A stretch of 64,000 nt of DNA from Armatimonadota bacterium (GTDB lineage: Bacteria; Armatimonadota; Fimbriimonadia; Fimbriimonadales; GBS-DC), in contig JBBIJY010000005.1 of the NCBI GenBank assembly GCA_037445735.1, forward strand, positions 1-64,000, read 5' to 3'. Under the pieces are notes generated by a model. It worked only from the letters and a program-made list of their open reading frames with translations. It searched no databases and was not told where the DNA came from. Both the position numbers and the translations under genes were made by a program. This document shows positions 680 through 62,190 of this stretch, piece by piece (positions within the stretch are counted from its first letter, which is position 1; every line of letters begins with the position of its first letter).

Positions 680-2017
680 ATGGATGTGATTGTGGTGGGT
701 GCGGGCGTGGCGGGGCTGGTCGCCGCGCGCGAGCTGGTTCGGGCGGGCAGGGCGGTGCTGGTGCTGGAAGCCCGCGACCGCGTGGGCGGGCGACTGCTCA
801 GCCATGAAATCGCGCCGAACCTCTGGATCGATTTAGGCGGTCAGTGGCTCGGTCCGACGCAGGAGCGCGCCTACGCCCTGGCGCGCGAGCTGAGCGTTGA
901 GCTGTTCCCCACCTATCACGAGGGTGATAGCCTCATCTATCAGGCGGGGCGACTGCGCCGCTATAAGGGCGTGGTGCCGAACATCGGGCTGCTGGCGTTG
1001 CTCGATTTTGGGCGCAGCATCGCGCGGCTGGATCGGATGGCGCAGGAGGTGCCGCTGGACGCGCCCTGGAACGCGCCGCGCGCCCGCGAGTGGGACTCGC
1101 TCACCTTTGCCACATGGATTGAGGGCTTCACGCGCACCGCTATCGGGCGGTGGGGACTCTCCCTGTTTGCGGAGGCGGTGTTCGCCGCCGAGCCGTGCGA
1201 GTTCTCGCTCCTGCACGCGCTGTTCTACATCCGTTCAGGCGGCGGCGTGGAGCGGTTGAGTGGCATTCGCGGCGGCGCGCAGCAGGATCGATTCGTGCCA
1301 GGTGCGCAGAGCCTCGCGAAACGCCTCGCAGAAGAGCTGGGCGAGCGCGTGCTGCTGAACCGACCCGTGACGCTCATTCAGCACGATTCGACGGGCGTGA
1401 CGGTGCATGCGGGCGGTCAGGCGTATCGGGCAAAGGCGGCGATTGTGGCGATCCCGCCCACGCTCGCAGGGCGCATCCAGTATGACCCGCCCATGCCGCC
1501 CGCGCGTGACCAGCTCACCCAGCGACTGCCCAACGGCTCCGTCATCAAATGCTTCGCCGTGTACCCGACCCCCTTCTGGCGCGAGCAGGGGCTGAACGGC
1601 TTCGTGACCAGCGACACGGGACCCGTGCATCTGGTGTTTGACAACTCGCCGCTCGACGGCTCAGTTGGCATTCTGCTGGGCTTTATGGAGGGCGCCGACG
1701 CCCGCCGCATGAGCATGGTTCCATCAGCGGAGCGGCGTCAGGCGGCGTTAGCCTGCTTCACCCGTTACTTTGGCGAGCGGGCGGCGAACCCCGAACTCTA
1801 TCTGGATCACGACTGGAGCGCGGAGGTGTGGACGCGCGGCTGCTACGGCGCTCACTTCCCGCCTGGCGCATGGACCCAGTTCGGACACGCCCTGCGCACG
1901 CCTGTCGGACGCATCCACTGGGCAGGCACGGAGACCGCCACACGCTGGATGGGCTACATCGACGGCGCCATCGAATCGGGACAGCGCGCCGCACAGGAGG
2001 TATTGCAAACGCTATGA
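680..2017 (+). CDS. Flavin monoamine oxidase family protein
   Basis: GAGVAG FAD motif, EARDRVGGR, DLGGQW, C-terminal HWAGTETA...GYIDGAIESG. Confidence 0.9.
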   Translation: MDVIVVGAGVAGLVAARELVRAGRAVLVLEARDRVGGRLLSHEIAPNLWIDLGGQWLGPTQERAYALARELSVELFPTYHEGDSLIYQAGRLRRYKGVVPNIGLLALLDFGRSIARLDRMAQEVPLDAPWNAPRAREWDSLTFATWIEGFTRTAIGRWGLSLFAEAVFAAEPCEFSLLHALFYIRSGGGVERLSGIRGGAQQDRFVPGAQSLAKRLAEELGERVLLNRPVTLIQHDSTGVTVHAGGQAYRAKAAIVAIPPTLAGRIQYDPPMPPARDQLTQRLPNGSVIKCFAVYPTPFWREQGLNGFVTSDTGPVHLVFDNSPLDGSVGILLGFMEGADARRMSMVPSAERRQAALACFTRYFGERAANPELYLDHDWSAEVWTRGCYGAHFPPGAWTQFGHALRTPVGRIHWAGTETATRWMGYIDGAIESGQRAAQEVLQTL

Positions 2018-8100: not shown

Positions 8101-8519
8101 CACTGCGTGAGTTCGTTCGGGAACAGATTCAGCAGATTTATGAGGCGCTGCAGCGGGGTCAACCCCCGCCCGTCGGCGAGTATGAGCCTGCCACACTCAA
8201 AGAGTGCATGCGCCGTGCCACCATCCAGATCGGCACCACCCACTACCGACCCGACAGCATCCTGCTGGAGTTCATCTTCACCGAGCCGAGCATGCCACCC
8301 GCCATCCTCACCATTCGCATCCCCGCCCCAGAACCCATCGTCTATATGCCCGTGCCCGACTGGGTGATTGAAGATGTGTGGCAGGGCGAGGTTACAGGCT
8401 CCTTCCGATTCGCCTCCGAAGCCCAGCTGCTGCTCAAAAAGCTGCAGAACCAGATTTTCTCGGAGGCGAACCTGCTCTATTTTGACGAGCGACCCCAGCT
8501 CAAACACCGCGACCGATAA
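8097..8519 (+). CDS. Hypothetical protein
   Basis: ATGA overlap with upstream gene, GGAGG RBS, host-like codon usage. Confidence 0.7.
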   Translation: MTLREFVREQIQQIYEALQRGQPPPVGEYEPATLKECMRRATIQIGTTHYRPDSILLEFIFTEPSMPPAILTIRIPAPEPIVYMPVPDWVIEDVWQGEVTGSFRFASEAQLLLKKLQNQIFSEANLLYFDERPQLKHRDR

Positions 8520-8542
8520 CCGCATCAGGTATCCTTGAGGGG

Positions 8543-9841
8543 ATGGAGCATTCGCGCCGAACACGGATCGAATTTCGGGAGTTCCAGCTGCCAAACGGAT
8601 TGCGCGTGCTGTTCTCGCCCCATCGCGCGGCGCCCGTCGTCGCCATACTGGTGATGTACAGGGTCGGCTCGCGCGATGAACCGCCTGGCAAAACGGGCTT
8701 CGCCCACCTGTTCGAACATATGATGTTTCAGGGTTCCGCCAATGTGCCGCGCGGCAAACACTTCGAATATGTGGAATCGAACGGCGGCATCCTGAACGGC
8801 TTCACCAGCTACGACTGCACCGCCTACTTCGAACTGCTGCCCGCCGCCAAGCTGCCGCTCGGACTGTGGCTCGAAGCCGACCGCATGCGCTCTCTGCAGG
8901 TCTCACAGGAGAATTTAGAGAACCAGCGGGCAGTGGTCAAAGAGGAGCGACGACTGAGCATCGACAACCGTCCCTACGCGCGCGCTCTGGAACGCCTGCG
9001 CGAAATCGCCTGCGATAACTTCGCCAACCAGCACTCGGTCATCGGCTCGATGGACGATCTGGATCGTGCGACGCTGGAGGATGTGCAACAATTTTTCCGC
9101 ACCTACTACGCGCCGAATAATGCGGTGCTGGTAATCGTGGGCGACTACGATTTGCGGCGCGACGGGCGCCTGGTTCGCGAGCTGTTTGAAGATATTCCAC
9201 CGCAGCCGTCGCCGCCATCTGTCGACCTCACCGAGCCAGAGCGCGGTGAGCGACGCGAGCTGTTTCACGACCCGCTGGCGAGCGTGCCCGCAATCGCCCT
9301 CACATGGAAAATCCCACCACGCTGCTCGCCTGACAACGACGCCCTGCAGATTGCAGCCGAAATACTGGTCGGCGGGCGCGCCTCACGCCTCTATCAGCGA
9401 CTGGTCAAACAGGAAGCGGTCGCCGTGAGCGTGTCGGGCGGCGCGGAAGCGCGCCCCGCGCCCAGCCTGTTCCAGCTGTTTATCCTGCACCGCCCCGATG
9501 TGCCTCCTGAGCGAATCGAACGCATTGTTTATGAAGAAATCGAGCGCCTTGCCAGCGAGGGTGTCCCCGACCCGGAACTGGAGCGCATCCGCACGCAACT
9601 GATTGCCCGGCGCTGGAGCGATAACCTCTATTACGGTCTGCAAAGCCCGCTGGGACGCGCGCTGGGGCTGGCGTTCGCAACCGTGTTCGATGGCGACCCC
9701 GACGCCATCAACCACGAGCTGGAACGCCTGCTCGCTGTCGACAGCCCGCGGGTGCAGCAGGCGGTGCAGCACTACCTGAACACCGAACGCAACCGCACCG
9801 TGATGACCATCGTGCCAGGCGCCACAGGAGGTGTCGTATGA
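8543..9841 (+). CDS. M16 family zinc peptidase, catalytic subunit
   Basis: LPNGLRV, GFAHLFEHMMF (HXXEH), VVKEERR. Confidence 0.92.
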   Translation: MEHSRRTRIEFREFQLPNGLRVLFSPHRAAPVVAILVMYRVGSRDEPPGKTGFAHLFEHMMFQGSANVPRGKHFEYVESNGGILNGFTSYDCTAYFELLPAAKLPLGLWLEADRMRSLQVSQENLENQRAVVKEERRLSIDNRPYARALERLREIACDNFANQHSVIGSMDDLDRATLEDVQQFFRTYYAPNNAVLVIVGDYDLRRDGRLVRELFEDIPPQPSPPSVDLTEPERGERRELFHDPLASVPAIALTWKIPPRCSPDNDALQIAAEILVGGRASRLYQRLVKQEAVAVSVSGGAEARPAPSLFQLFILHRPDVPPERIERIVYEEIERLASEGVPDPELERIRTQLIARRWSDNLYYGLQSPLGRALGLAFATVFDGDPDAINHELERLLAVDSPRVQQAVQHYLNTERNRTVMTIVPGATGGVV

Positions 9842-27082: not shown

Positions 27083-27156
<74 letters not shown>

Positions 27157-27341
27157 TACTCCCTGTCGTTTCTGATACCCCTACCTGTTGTGCTTCTCAT
27201 ACCTCGCGCCTCTTGCGAAACGCACGAGGCTGAGATTCCTCGAACACGCCTTGCCTGTTTGTAGGGTCAGGCTCCCCCGATTTTCACTGCAGAGGCGTCT
27301 CACAGGTGGGGCGAAAAGGGGGGCTGTGCCACAGCATAGAG

Positions 27342-27418
27342 TGGTAGCGGCGGGCGGATTCGAACCGCCGACCTACCGGGTATGAGCCGGTCGCTCTCAC
27401 CAACTGAGCTACGCCGCC
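27342..27418 (-). tRNA. tRNA with CAT anticodon (probably elongator Met)
   Basis: ACCGG-CTCATAC-CCGGT, GGTTCGAAT, CCA; lacks the initiator GGG/CCC stem. Confidence 0.9.
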
Positions 27419-27422
27419 AGAA

Positions 27423-27509
27423 TGGTGCGGGCGGAGGGACTCGAACCCCCACGGGCGAACGCCCACTAGAACCTGAATCTAGCGTGTCTACCAATTCCAC
27501 CACGCCCGC
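27423..27509 (-). tRNA. tRNA-Leu(CAG)
   Basis: CTAGA-TTCAGGT-TCTAG, long variable arm, CCA. Confidence 0.95.
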
Positions 27510-27570: not shown

Positions 27571-27687
27571 ATGAAATACATCGGGCTCGACATTAGCGGG
27601 AACATCACCGCGTACGCATGCCTGTTGCCCGTCACGGGCAGCACCATGCGCCCTCCCCCCTTTGTCAAGGGGTCAGGCGGGTTATGA
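27571..27687 (+). pseudogene. Possible IS110/RuvC-like N-terminal remnant
   Basis: GGAGGAGGAG RBS, then MKYIGLDIS; only 38 codons. Confidence 0.4.
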
Positions 27688-30873: not shown

Positions 30874-33800
30874 TTGAGCGCGAGTGGCGCAACAAATGAG
30901 AGCGGGCAGTCAACCCGCGTGCAATGCGGCGCGAGGGGTGTCAAGGGCTTTCCTGATACAAGAGGCAGTTTAGCCATCATCGAAGCCAACAAGGGGCTGC
31001 AAAGCGACACGGTGTGGGAAGGTTCTTTTCCCGCGCCAGCAGGCTGGTATCGGCTGCAGTTTGCGGTGCAGCTGGGCGATTACAACGGGTCAGCCGCGGG
31101 GCTTGCTGTGCGCATCCAGCTGCAGGATAGCGTGACGGGGCAGACCTTTGCGCTGGCGCAGCCATTTGGCACTGCCCCGCTGCTGGTGGTGGATGTGGGG
31201 GTGCCGACGCCCAACGCTTATATCGTGCAGGTGGTGGCGCCAGCGAATGAGCGGTGGCTGACGATTACACGCAAGGAGGTGCCAGCGACGGCGCCCGTGC
31301 CCGACACCTATGGGGCGCCGTTTGGGTGGCAGGGGAGCCTGCCTGTACCCTATGGGGTGCTGAATATCTGGAACGGCAACCTGCATCTGAGTTTGCCGCT
31401 GTTTGGCTGGGGCGGTCAGGCGGGGGTGGCGTTTGGGCTGTTTTATAATGCGCAGGATAGTCGTGAAGGGGTTCTGGGCGTGGGCTGGCGGCACAGTTAT
31501 GAGGCATCGCTGAGCTTTGTGCCCCAGAACAATCCGCCGCTGGTGGTGGTGAACGAACCCGATGGGCGGCAGCTGGCGTATGCGCAGCAGCCGGATGGGA
31601 GTTATGTGGCGATGCGGGGGGTCTACGCGCAGTTGCGCTTCAAGGACGGGCAGTATGAGCTGGTTCGTCCGTCGCAGGAGCGGTGGGTGTTTGACAGCAC
31701 AGGTCGGCTGGTGGCGATTCGGGATTTGCACAATCAGGGTGTGGTGTTGAGTTATGATGGGTCTGGGCGTGTGGTGCAGATAACAGATAGTGTGAACCGT
31801 TCGGCGGTGCTGGCGTACTATGAGGCGTCGGATCGGGTGCCGGGCACGAACACGCCTGTGCCTGCGGCGTGGGTAGGGAAGTTGAAGAGCGTGCAGGATG
31901 CGCTGGGGCGTGTGTGGCGGTTTGTGTATGAGCCGCTGCCAGCGGATGGTGGCAGTGGGGGTGGAGGTGGGACAGGTGGGAACACAGGGGGCGAAGGGGA
32001 ACCGAGCAGGGTTTATTTGCAGCGGGTGATTTATCCCGATCTGGCATACGGTGGCGTGGTGGAGAGCTCGGGCGCAGGGTATCGGCTAGAATACCTGGAC
32101 GGTCAGCTGGAGTATCAGCGGCTGACCCGTGTGGTGGATCGGGCGGGTTATGCGACCAGTTATGGCTACAGTGGGGCGCGCTGTGTCTGGTTCCAGTATG
32201 AGGGGCGTCCGCCGGAGGGTAACGAGTTGCGAGCGAAGGTGTTGCCGGAGGGTCGGGTGGTGGCATACACCTATGATTTAGAGGGGCGGTTGTTGACGAT
32301 GCAGGAGGCGGGACGGACGACGACCTGGACTTATCAGGATAGCACAGGCTTTTTGGAGAGCGTCTCCTCGCCTGAGGGCACGATAGAGTACAGCTGGCAG
32401 AACGGGCTGTTGCACACGGTGGTGGTGCAGCCTGCGGGTGGGACGCGACAGGAGTGGCAATATACTTACAACGCAGCAGACGAGCTGGAGCGAGTGGATC
32501 GTCTGGTGAACGGTTCGTGGCAGGTGGAGGTGCAGTATGAGCGGGATGGCTTTGGGCGATTGTGGCGAGTGCGGTATGGGAACGGCACGGTGGTGGAGTA
32601 TGGGTATGATGGGGCGGATCGGGTGCGGAGCGAGACCTACAAGGTGGGCAGCACGCCCTATCGGGCGGTGGAGTATGAGCGGGATGGGTTAGGGCGGCTC
32701 TGGCGCAAGCACGAGTATGTGTGGCAGGGGAGCCGTCGGCAGTGGCAGGCGACAGTGGAGTATACTTACGACCATCAGGGTCAGCTGGTTGGGGAGGTGC
32801 GGAGGGGCACGAATGCGTACACGATAGCATATGGGTATGATAAGGTGGGCAATCGGTTGACGCGCACGCGCGTGGTGAACGGGCAGAGTTTTGAGGATGC
32901 GCTGGTGTATAACGAGGCGAACCAGTTGGTGTCGTGGAACGGTCAGAGCTGGGAGTATGATTTAGATGGGAATGGGGTGGTGCGTCGGGCGAACGGGGAG
33001 ACCTGGTTGCTGGGTTATGATGCGGAGGGGAACCTGGTGAGTTTACAGAAGCAGGGCGAAGCTGTGGGTTGGGTGTATGAATATGATGGTTTAGGTCGTC
33101 GGGTGCGTTCGGTGCGTGGCACGCTGGAGGTGGCGTATCTCTATTCAGGGGATACGCTTGTTGCCGAGCGCACTAACGGCAACTGGGTATACTACGGCTA
33201 CGGTGGTGCGATGTACGCCCAGACATCCAGCACAGGGATGGAGTATAAACACTGGAGCTGGCGTGGGGACCTGATGGCGAAGTCGGGTGCCAGTGGTGCA
33301 TATTCGCCTGCGCCGATTACGGACGCTTTTGGCGATTTGGTGAGTGAGACAGCGCGGGATACCTATGACTGGAACGGTGCGTGGGGTTATCGGAACGAGG
33401 CGTTCACGGGCGGGTTGCAGAAGGTAGGGGTTCGGTGGTATGACCCTGCAGTGGGTCGGTTTTTGCAGCTGGATCCGTGGGTTGGGGTCTCTTTATGCGC
33501 CGCTGACGCTGAATGCGTATGGGTATTGCTTGAATGATCCGCTAAAATGGGTCGACCCAGATGGTGAGCAGGTTGCGGAAGCGGTTGCTGTCGGTGGAAC
33601 TTTGGCACTTGCTGATGGACCTCTGCCGGTTGGTGAAATTATCGGGGCAGCTGTTGTGATTGGTGCGATTATAGTTTGTTTGGCAAGGGGAAGAAGCGGA
33701 GGTGATGACCCTGCTAAGGATAGGGCGCGTGAGCGAGAACACGGACGTCGCAAGTACGAAGAAAGGCGAAAACACAAAGATGAAATGGAAAGGCGGCTTC

Positions 33801-44298: not shown

Positions 44299-44389
44299 TG
44301 GCGGAGGGGGAGGGATTCGAACCCCCGTCCCACACGAGGTGGGATGCGGTTTTCAAGACCGCCGCCTTCAACCACTCGGCCACCCCTCC
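44299..44389 (-). tRNA. tRNA-Ser(TGA)
   Basis: GCGGT-CTTGAAA-ACCGC, long variable arm, G73-CCA. Confidence 0.95.
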
Positions 44390-60546: not shown

Positions 60547-61163
60547 TCGGGCAGTGTCGCCCGCTCCTGCTCGCTCAGGTGGAGCTGCACTTCGGCGTCC
60601 GCCAGCTGAATCACCGTGTGTTCGTTGCTGTTGCGCAGCTCCTCTATAATCGCGTCGATCTTTTCGGGGGTGAGCTGTCGGCAGTAGATGTCGCCCACCT
60701 GCATCACGGGCGCGTCACCACAGTTGTTGAGGCATTCCACTTCGGTCAGCGTGAACAGCCCATCGGGTGTGGTCTCGCCCAGCTGGATGCCGAGCTTCTG
60801 CTGCAGATATTCCAGGATTCGGTACGCGCCGCACAGCATGCAGCTCAGGTTGGTGCAGACCTCCAGCATATATTTGCCGACGGGCTGCTTGTTATACATC
60901 GTGTAGAAGGTGGCGACGCCTTCCACTTCGGCGCAGGAGCGTCCGAGCCGATAGGCGACTTCGGCAATCGCTTCAGGTGGCAGGTAGCCGCCGTACTCGC
61001 GCTGGGCAATCCAGAGGGCGGGCAACATCGCCGACTTGCGGTCAGGGTAGTGCTGGAGGATCAGCTCCAGCTCACGGACGGCGCGTTCGGAGAATCGCAG
61101 GGTCAGCTCCTGCGGGCGTGGTGGGCGCAGTTGCGCCGAGAGCCGAATCGGTTGCTGTTCCAT
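60534..61163 (-). CDS. nuoE: NADH-quinone oxidoreductase subunit E
   Basis: VATFYTMY, C..LSC, ECLNNC..AP. Confidence 0.9.
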
Positions 61164-61190
61164 CGCTGGAATTGTACCTGATAGGGAGAT

Positions 61191-61518
61191 AAAAAAGAGC
61201 CCGAGCGAATCGGTCTGCCCTTTTCGGTTCCGCCTGGCTTGCTGCCGTCCTGCGGACTCGGTGCCCCGACCGACATTGCTGCCGATCCTGAGGCGCCGCC
61301 ACTCCACGAGTGAGCAGCAGGCTTCGGGCGGTTCCTATCCGCCGTTCACGCGCGCCCAACACTGGGGCGCGGGCTGCGCGTGTTGCTCCCCGCACGGTCT
61401 CTCCATCGGCTGCCCGTCGCCGGCGCAACGGGCGTCGATGGCTCCGAGCAAGGCTCCCGACGGCAGGGACACCTGCCTTCGCTCGGGCGACGGTCATCGA
61501 GTTTCCCCGATAACCATC
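61191..61518 (-). ncRNA. Putative large structured ncRNA, family unrecognised
   Basis: Consensus promoter, 11-bp closing stem, many hairpins with G-U pairs and GNRA loops, U-tract. Confidence 0.75.
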
Positions 61519-61521
61519 CCT

Positions 61522-61551
61522 ATTATACCACACCGATGACGGCTTTGTCAA
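61522..61551 (-). promoter_or_regulatory. Consensus sigma70 promoter
   Basis: TTGACA-N18-TATAAT with extended TG. Confidence 0.85.
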
Positions 61552-61668
61552 GGGGTCGAGGGGGAATCGGGGGGTTTTCGAGGGCGAATCGGGGGAAATT
61601 TCGGGCAAAATCGGGAGTTTCGGCGCTCGAAGCCGTCGCGCAGGTGCGCGTGGGGTACACTCTGGGGG

Positions 61669-62190
61669 ATGGCGGAGGCGAGTCAACCCGTGCGGCGGGC
61701 AATCTACCCTGGCAGCTTCGACCCGCCCACGATGGGGCATCTGGATATTATCACGCGGGCAGCGCGACTGTTCGACGAACTCATCGTCGCGGTCGCCATC
61801 AACAGCGACAAAAAGCCCCTCTTCAGCCTGCAGGAGCGGGTCGCCATGCTGGAGGAGTGCTGCAGGCAGCTGCCGAATGTGCGCGTGATGCCGCTGGAAG
61901 GTCTGCTGGCACGCTTCGCGCAGCAGGCAGGCGCATGCGCCATCGTGCGCGGGCTGCGAGCCGTATCCGACTTCGAATACGAGTTCCAGATGGCGACCAT
62001 GAACCGCCAGCTGGCGCCCGAAGTGGACACCTGCTTCCTCATGACGCATCAACAGTACGCCTTTCTGTCGTCGTCCATCGTGAAGGAGGTGGCGCGGCTC
62101 GGCGGCGATGTGAGCCAGCTGGTGCCCCCCAATGTGCAGACCCGCCTGCAACAAAAATTTGCTCCACCATCGGCAGGAGACGGTCACTGA
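61669..62190 (+). CDS. coaD: Pantetheine-phosphate adenylyltransferase
   Basis: YPGSFDP.T.GH, RGLRAVSDFEYE, SSSIVKE. Confidence 0.96.
   Translation: MAEASQPVRRAIYPGSFDPPTMGHLDIITRAARLFDELIVAVAINSDKKPLFSLQERVAMLEECCRQLPNVRVMPLEGLLARFAQQAGACAIVRGLRAVSDFEYEFQMATMNRQLAPEVDTCFLMTHQQYAFLSSSIVKEVARLGGDVSQLVPPNVQTRLQQKFAPPSAGDGH

Follow-up and report, generated by a model that had tools for sequence, protein, structure and literature searches.

A putative gene for a large structured noncoding RNA in the gap between nuoE and coaD of an Armatimonadota bacterium and its distribution in the Fimbriimonadales

The stretch of DNA analysed here (the window) is the 64 kb at positions 1–64,000 of contig JBBIJY010000005.1 in assembly GCA_037445735.1 of an Armatimonadota bacterium (genome G000 below), and our subject is the 500-bp gap between its nuoE and coaD genes, which holds a putative noncoding RNA (ncRNA) gene on the minus strand. 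The nuoE gene is also on the minus strand, with its ATG at 61163 (Pfam 2Fe-2S_thioredx), and coaD occupies 61669–62190 (Pfam CTP_transf_like). An original prediction, made from the nucleotide sequence of the window, had placed a large structured RNA between these two genes; that position is borne out, but coaD is transcribed from the plus strand, away from the RNA and not co-linear with it. The promoter, helices (P0 to P9) and joining regions of the RNA gene, with coordinates in the window, are as follows.

61522–61551, minus strand: promoter (TTGACA from 61551, N18 spacer, TG and TATAAT ending at 61522); consensus matches 12 of 12, preceded by CCCC
61191–61515, minus strand: RNA gene, ~325 nt; start placed by promoter geometry together with the first paired base that is conserved, end by the U-run, both ends being inferred
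61489–61518, minus strand: P0, 5' hairpin GAUGGUUAUCGGG-GAAA-CUCGAUGACCGUC; 13 bp in the G000 sequence and in its minimum-free-energy (MFE) fold, outside the closing stem
61478–61488, minus strand: P1, 5' half of the closing stem, GCCCGAGCGAA; in both sequence and MFE fold
61334–61467, minus strand: domain A, containing P2, P3 and P4/P4a; helices 3–8, 82–99% paired, all with compensatory changes
61467–61458 with 61344–61334, minus strand: P2, long-range, encloses P3 and P4/P4a
61453–61388, minus strand: P3 of domain A, with a variable GNRA-capped extension
61382–61347, minus strand: P4/P4a; P4a bears the near-invariant loop GCGCCCCAG
61230–61331, minus strand: domain B, in which P5 and P5' enclose P6, P7 and P8
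61331–61327 with 61234–61230, minus strand: P5, tentative, 70% paired
61319–61314 with 61245–61240, minus strand: P5' of domain B
61312–61300, minus strand: P6 of domain B
61294–61263, minus strand: P7, with a GCAA loop and invariant U-G and G-U pairs
61257–61247, minus strand: P8 of domain B
61219–61227, minus strand: conserved junction CCGAAAAGG (consensus), joins domain B to the 3' tail
61214–61212 with 61473–61471, minus strand: P9, tentative and weak, pairs the 3' tail with the strand after P1
61199–61209, minus strand: P1, 3' strand UUCGCUCGGGC; in the sequence and the MFE fold
61191–61198, minus strand: U-run UCUUUUUU, a terminator-like 3' end directly after P1

The TTGACA-N18-TATAAT promoter that had been predicted is the sole sigma-70-type site that a promoter scan finds in positions 60900–61900, where shuffled sequences average 0.1 sites, and it is kept in all 16 of the homologues displayed (the homologues are described below). 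It is of the clade's strong consensus type, which is shared with tRNA genes: CCCTTGACA is present at 51 sites in the genome, a -10 element stands at the right spacing in 39 of them, and tRNA genes start 11–19 nt downstream of four. As a separate observation, the strong promoters of this clade have an architecture of CCCCTTGACA, 15–19 nt and (T/G)GnTATAAT (examples in the window are at 61546–61554 and 27663–27671, both on the minus strand), often with a TTTTCGAACA-like block, rich in A and T, some 10 nt further upstream, and their spacer is partly conserved, for example as AAGCCGTCATCGATGTG at two sites.

Minimum-free-energy folding of 330 nt of the minus strand gave -189.4 kcal/mol (z = -6.5), a value that none of 100 dinucleotide shuffles equalled, and the plus strand gave -159.8 kcal/mol (z = -3.2). 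The fold is strand-specific, as had been proposed from G-U pairs on the RNA strand, and the invariant G-U pairs are indeed on the minus strand. The core of about 290 nt is closed by P1, which has 11 bp in G000, whose strands lie 270 nt apart and which runs straight into the U-run; the predicted 11-bp long-range stem followed by a run of Us is thus found as described, and a T-rich run also follows P1 in the displayed homologues. The predicted 13-bp GAAA hairpin upstream of P1 is likewise there, but its conserved part is 10 bp that begin at ~61515, and, as this part starts 7 nt past the -10 element, the three outer pairs are probably upstream of the transcription start. Three of the 10 conserved pairs of P0 (alignment columns 8/31, 11/28 and 12/27) have changed on both sides, and the hairpin is present in two divergent variants of the RNA, those of genomes G027 and G004 (below).

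The ten helices that the original prediction had listed inside the closing stem fared unevenly. Five are in the MFE fold (CCAUCG/CGAUGG, GCCCGUUGC/GCGACGGGC, CACUC/GAGUG, GAUCGGCA-GCAA-UGUCGGUC and GUCC/GGAC), and among these CCAUCG/CGAUGG, which lies in a variable extension, is alone in falling outside the comparative model described in the next paragraph. Four more (GGCAGG/CCUGCC, GUCGG/CCGAU, GGCGG/CCGCC and UUGCUC/GAGCAA) are displaced by covarying alternatives, in which CCUGCCGUCG pairs over a long range with CGGCGG-A-UAGG, a GGCGG further downstream is the partner of CCGCC, and CCUUGC pairs with GCGGGG; GCCU/AGGC was not placed.

A plain MAFFT alignment of 16 homologues analysed with RNAalifold gave 72 pairs, 26 of them with compensatory changes. 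Single-column covariation scans were swamped by phylogenetic signal, so stacked-helix scans and per-sequence duplex folding were used instead, and long-range helices were added by such duplex folding and by inspection of register shifts, giving a refined covariance model that we call R2. In the 13 helices of R2, 92.7% of 2901 cells from 38 distinct sequences (aligned by fitting to R2 itself) are standard pairs and 55 of the 78 pairs have changed on both sides; none of 500 column shuffles reached any of five measures, and controls in which the partners were slid by 1–3 columns were 34–40% paired with 17–25 covarying pairs. The closing stem P1 (helix 1) is 100% paired in the 38 sequences, with changes on both sides in six of 10 pairs, and P9 (helix 2) is 69% paired, each of its five pairs showing compensatory changes. 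For the 3' domain we also have a MAFFT alignment that was not fitted to the model, in which 92.0% of cells are paired, 14 of 27 pairs have changed on both sides and one of 500 shuffles scored as high; run on this domain by itself, RNAalifold returned just P7 and a P8 in the wrong register, since the genera are shifted against each other by one column. The joining strands GGGAGCC, GGAGUAA, GAUAGGAAC and CCGAAAAGG are near-invariant, and a search for pseudoknots among the unpaired columns found no stack of at least three pairs at 85% or more.

The region carries no sign of protein coding. Variability along the alignment columns does not recur with a period of three bases (permutation p = 0.40), only 21 of 221 gap runs have a length divisible by three, every reading frame is interrupted in at least one of the 16 sequences, and the open reading frames (ORFs) that overlap the RNA region have no Pfam matches. 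The locus is non-coding and its RNA fold is kept by compensatory changes, which are abundant among the relatives that have the RNA, as the proposal of a selected RNA fold had implied. As an aside on domain B, the P8 hairpin forms a perfect palindrome of 10 nt in genus g3 (GCUUCGAAGC) and in most of genus g5 (GCUGUACAGC), for example in L090 and L088, and is not palindromic in genus g1; judged by its sequence, a palindromic P8 could pair between two molecules.

BLAST against 40 relatives found the RNA in 18, that is, in 19 of 41 genomes when G000 is counted; it is single-copy in G000, gives one match per genome in the relatives, and the homologues found by nhmmer are full-length cores of 277–298 nt. 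Identity is 98% between near-identical species, 75–78% within g1 (the genus in which coaD flanks the RNA) and 66–72% between genera. Covariance model R1, which describes the core and leaves out the 5' hairpin, detected the RNA in 27 of 151 genomes of the order; the host family f1 has it in 25 of 28 genomes, three sister families have it in none of 98, 20 and 3 genomes, respectively, and a fourth family contributes one weak full-length match, in G027. That copy (L063:1440–1830, plus strand) has the same type of promoter, the GAAA hairpin, covarying P1 and P2, the P7 hairpin and the U-run; it is 48% GC, has an enlarged P3 arm and a closing stem about 7 pairs longer, and is without the GCGCCCCAG loop. 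These sequence features show the match to be genuine. Within f1, genome G004 has a shortened variant of ~250 nt (L062, ~1450–1725, minus strand) that retains P0, P1, the GCCCCAG loop and P7, and in which the models see only a 22-nt hairpin.

With R2 and lax filters, a set of G027 relatives gave matches in 11 of 11 genomes of f1 and in the one genome of f4, and none in 13 genomes of f3 or 12 of f5; a 29-nt match in f2 was taken as spurious. R2 also found the RNA in none of 120 genomes of f3, the largest sister family, and in none of 150 other genomes from across the phylum. Absence from the sister families is bounded by the sensitivity of the models, as the G004 and G027 variants illustrate, and many of these genomes are incomplete metagenome-assembled genomes (MAGs). 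A three-motif pattern applied to one genome per species of 185,579 species gave 27 loci, and 24 of them match the model; the records of these 24 are titled Fimbriimonadales, Armatimonadota/Armatimonadetes or, once, 'Bacterium HR15'. The other three (L071, L076 and L085) are from other phyla, have no model match and were dropped as chance. As far as searched, the RNA is confined to one family-level clade and one sister lineage of uncultured, moderately thermophilic Fimbriimonadales. One of the MAGs that carry it, JP3_11, is given as coming from a hot-spring mat at 46 °C (PMC5629042), and the uncultured family GBS-DC is described as one of moderate thermophiles (PMC12731048).

The 20-mer of P7 was also used as a probe, and it returned 10 viral and more than 117 metagenome stretches. 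Among the 80 metagenome loci that were fetched, 17 are additional contigs with the RNA and 63 hold at most the P7 hairpin, and none of the 10 viral loci holds more than that hairpin. We considered the 20-mer as a widespread element in its own right and read its occurrences instead as chance or repeatedly sampled loci; the 18 that were scanned with Rfam included E. coli-like contigs and one RNase P RNA.

The genes beside the RNA are not conserved. The nuoE gene is downstream only in G000 and in G002, a 98%-identical relative (public record L086), and coaD is a neighbour only within g1, as said above; the downstream gene is PilB/GspE-like in g3 (an identity assigned by eye) and a 401-aa ORF in g5, and elsewhere there are lipoprotein-like, glycosyltransferase-like or other ORFs. 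Within ~10 kb no gene is common across genera except for one scattered ORF family, which is found in four genera at distances of 16 nt to 13 kb from the RNA. Because the downstream gene changes between genera, the RNA would not be a nuoE leader. The original prediction had said that it need not be one, from a -10 element just upstream of nuoE, and this fits what is seen: GGTATAAT or GGTACAAT stands 6–8 nt before the ATG, with no Shine-Dalgarno sequence, in three of 18 downstream genes (L001, L009 and L061), which gives these a leaderless-type promoter of their own, and a weaker GGAATAAC is at the same place in g3. More generally, an extended -10 element lies 6–11 nt before the start codon, again with no Shine-Dalgarno sequence, at 61163–61198 of the window (minus strand) and in L009, L061, L014 and L018, a pattern that suggests the use of leaderless mRNAs in this lineage.

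Comparison with known RNA families gave no identification. At gathering scores, the 4227 models of Rfam 15 identify four tRNAs and nothing else in the window, and with permissive filters (E ≤ 10) positions 61050–61750 gave only three chance-level matches; the best is a non-significant match to c-di-GMP-II-GAG (18.7 bits, where the cut-off is 40, and E = 0.81), and a raiA-hairpin match of 14 bits (E = 10) is noise. The distant G027 copy had no Rfam match. No model of class A RNase P RNA, tmRNA, signal recognition particle (SRP) RNA or 6S RNA matches at the locus, and there is no qualifying match there to the OLE, raiA, ROOL, GOLLD or HEARO models. G000 has its RNase P RNA at C3:109574–109914 (263.1 bits) and its SRP RNA (C21, 70.3 bits) and tmRNA (C26, 177.8 bits) on other contigs, and a 6S-like gene is present at C25:13084–13265 (minus strand; L027). 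The latter scores 31.3 bits against the Rfam cut-off of 46.4 but has a GGGTATAAT -10 element, a GGGGTTTTT terminator and 5' and 3' ends that pair with each other; the 6S model of Rfam seems not sensitive enough for this clade. Since RNase P, SRP and tmRNA genes and a 6S candidate are present elsewhere, the RNA studied here is an extra one and not a displaced housekeeping RNA, and the original prediction likewise saw no hallmarks of RNase P, tmRNA or SRP RNA in it. A search of the literature on structured or noncoding RNAs of Armatimonadetes, Armatimonadota and Fimbriimonadales, supplements not covered, did not find such an RNA, and the literature on large ncRNAs returned known classes only.

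We conclude, with a probability that we put at roughly 80%, that the gap between nuoE and coaD holds an independent gene for a stable structured ncRNA of ~325 nt, the first described member of a new family confined, as far as searched, to this clade and one sister lineage. It has one copy per genome, a consensus promoter, a two-domain junction with GNRA loops, and neighbours that are not conserved. The family is new but of a known kind, the orphan large structured bacterial RNAs, from whose other members it is set apart by family models alone; like them it is longer than ~200 nt and non-coding and has covarying helices and its own transcription signals. In this sense the new class of large multi-junction ncRNA that had been suggested is supported by the lack of an Rfam family and by the conserved, covarying fold. 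Such an RNA would be transcribed at a high level, to judge by a promoter type that tRNA genes also use, as a discrete, stable and abundant molecule, in which P0 may shield the 5' end and P1 would clamp both ends of the core together. It would then act in trans through a tertiary fold that its three GNRA loops and its purine-rich junctions organise. Its most likely role would be that of the RNA in a ribonucleoprotein, or of an RNA that binds a protein or some other component of the cell, and presumably not that of a base-pairing regulator. A CsrB-like protein sponge, considered because GGA appears frequent by eye, was rejected, as the RNA has a fixed long-range fold and not a set of repeated hairpins.

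Several points weigh against this conclusion. A scan for short-loop terminators called none at the 3' end of the RNA, because the stem there closes 290 nt; a stem of that kind is an atypical intrinsic terminator, and a substantial share of transcripts may run on into the next gene. An ORF of at least 100 aa in the same direction begins 20–68 nt past the U-run in 17 of 18 loci, an arrangement that resembles a leader and that we read as tolerance of read-through from a strong promoter. P5 and P9, each about 70% paired, are weakly supported and tentative, and the large covariation counts come from the 38-sequence alignment that was fitted to R2. Finally, action as a folded RNA or ribonucleoprotein is suggested by analogy with other large structured RNAs, and no partner protein, ligand or target was found in this analysis.

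A stronger version of the conclusion, which we think unlikely, is that this is the founding member of a new RNA class with its own activity, either a ribozyme or an RNA-only or RNA-protein assembly like those of OLE, ROOL or GOLLD, tied to life at elevated temperature. In a bolder variant still, the stem that joins the two ends might let transcription terminate only if all 290 nt of the core have folded correctly.

The rival that survives best, improbable as we judge it, is a cis-acting leader or attenuator, in which folding of the core sets termination at P1 and the U-run and a ligand, a protein or temperature tunes the read-through. The RNA does resemble cobalamin, lysine and T-box leaders in being a structured 5' element with a stem and a U-run just upstream of an ORF: the U-run directly follows P1 in the displayed members, the co-directional ORFs lie as close as stated above, and the size and the conservation of the junctions are compatible with a large aptamer. 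The long-range P1 is also the only terminator-like stem, which a short-loop scan does not call, and the non-significant resemblance to c-di-GMP-II-GAG could be set beside the PilB/GspE-like ATPase that is downstream in g3 (by eye). However, large riboswitch leaders are expected to share a downstream gene class, and here no functional class recurs; the downstream genes (nuoE, lipoprotein-like, PilB-like, 401-aa and glycosyltransferase-like) are unrelated between genera. The RNA is moreover present once per genome, matches no leader family and, in contrast to such leaders, has its closing stem as its sole candidate terminator. Several of the downstream genes have their own -10 element and no Shine-Dalgarno sequence, so that a read-through transcript would be poorly translated, and a 5' hairpin outside P1 together with a tRNA-type promoter fits a stable RNA.

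Very improbable is the idea that the independent gene belongs to some known housekeeping or large RNA class (RNase P, 6S/Ms1-like, tmRNA, SRP, OLE, raiA, ROOL, GOLLD or HEARO), in a form so divergent that Rfam missed it. The closest likeness is to class A RNase P RNA (RF00010), which has a similar length, multi-domain junctions, GNRA tetraloops and paired termini and shares one 20-nt hairpin; the P7 20-mer, of the GGAUCGGCGGCAACGUCGGU type, is found at L150:8453–8472 inside a metagenome class A RNase P RNA (8244–8675) and also in L157. That resemblance is the hairpin alone (24 nt, 23 bits), however, and the RNase P model has no match at the locus at E ≤ 10, the GAGGAAAGUCC motif is absent according to the original prediction, and chance-level Rfam matches, none at all for the G027 copy, and the housekeeping genes elsewhere in G000 argue against every class in the list that they concern. 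Like 6S RNA (RF00013) and Ms1, an RNA polymerase-binding RNA, the RNA is single-copy and stand-alone, with a strong promoter, paired ends and a U-run, but 6S RNA is a rod with a central bubble, whereas the fold here is a branched two-domain junction, and the separate 6S-like gene is on contig 25. With raiA (itself an orphan large structured bacterial RNA), ROOL and GOLLD it shares discovery by comparative analysis, a promoter and terminator of its own and richness in GNRA loops; it differs from them in having no sequence or structure match, no phage association and a range of a single Armatimonadota clade. OLE RNA (RF01071; PMC3413148) is similarly large, ornate and stand-alone, with many covarying helices and a narrow extremophile or thermophile range, and in both cases function is not obvious from context; our RNA is about half the size of OLE, comes from another phylum and has no match to its model, and no oap-type gene was seen in the flanks inspected for conservation, where oap genes were not searched for as such.

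A mobile-element, phage or defence RNA (a guide or omega RNA, a retron or a bridge RNA) would explain why the flanking genes differ between genera, and we give it hardly any credence: nearly all genomes of the family have exactly one copy and similarity tracks the genera, no nuclease, reverse transcriptase or transposase recurs beside the RNA, and the viral contigs with the P7 20-mer hold only the hairpin (10 of 10). The last possibility, that there is no RNA gene and that the gap is protein-coding or a chance GC-rich palindromic stretch, can in practice be dismissed, for while high-GC DNA gives long spurious ORFs (e.g., 61261–61539, plus strand) and generally low folding energies, the absence of periodicity, of a common open frame and of Pfam matches, the frame-breaking indels, the strand-specific compensatory changes and a fold 6.5 standard deviations better than shuffles all speak against it.

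RNAs of this sort, large, intricately folded and with no known job, are rare in bacteria, and among those studied so far the RNase P, OLE, ROOL, GOLLD and raiA RNAs have each opened new biochemistry or structural biology. The RNA described here is well defined: its promoter and 3' end are clear, covariation is strong, and there are 13 helices and ~40 distinct sequences. Its length suits it to in vitro transcription, chemical probing and cryo-EM. As it is restricted to a moderately thermophilic family, the close relatives in which it was not found provide a comparison set for the search for a partner or phenotype. Even if it is only clade-specific and has a modest role, it still adds a clean new family to RNA databases and to the annotation of genomes; as long as no such entry exists, the locus between coaD and nuoE is an unexplained 500-bp gap. 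ROOL, GOLLD and OLE are reported to form RNA-only homo-oligomers (PMC12286853), and formation of such an assembly is a testable possibility for this RNA as well.

Two further features of the window were noted. Its four tRNA genes lie at 27083–27509 (three, clustered, on both strands) and at 44302–44389. In addition, three identical stretches of at least 79 nt, one in the window at ~30939–31010 (minus strand) and the others at C6:32008 (plus strand) and C32:27236 (minus strand), begin with a CTGTCTCTTGTATCAG-like end and hold CCCTTGACAC, and they have the look of one end of a repeated element, possibly an insertion sequence.

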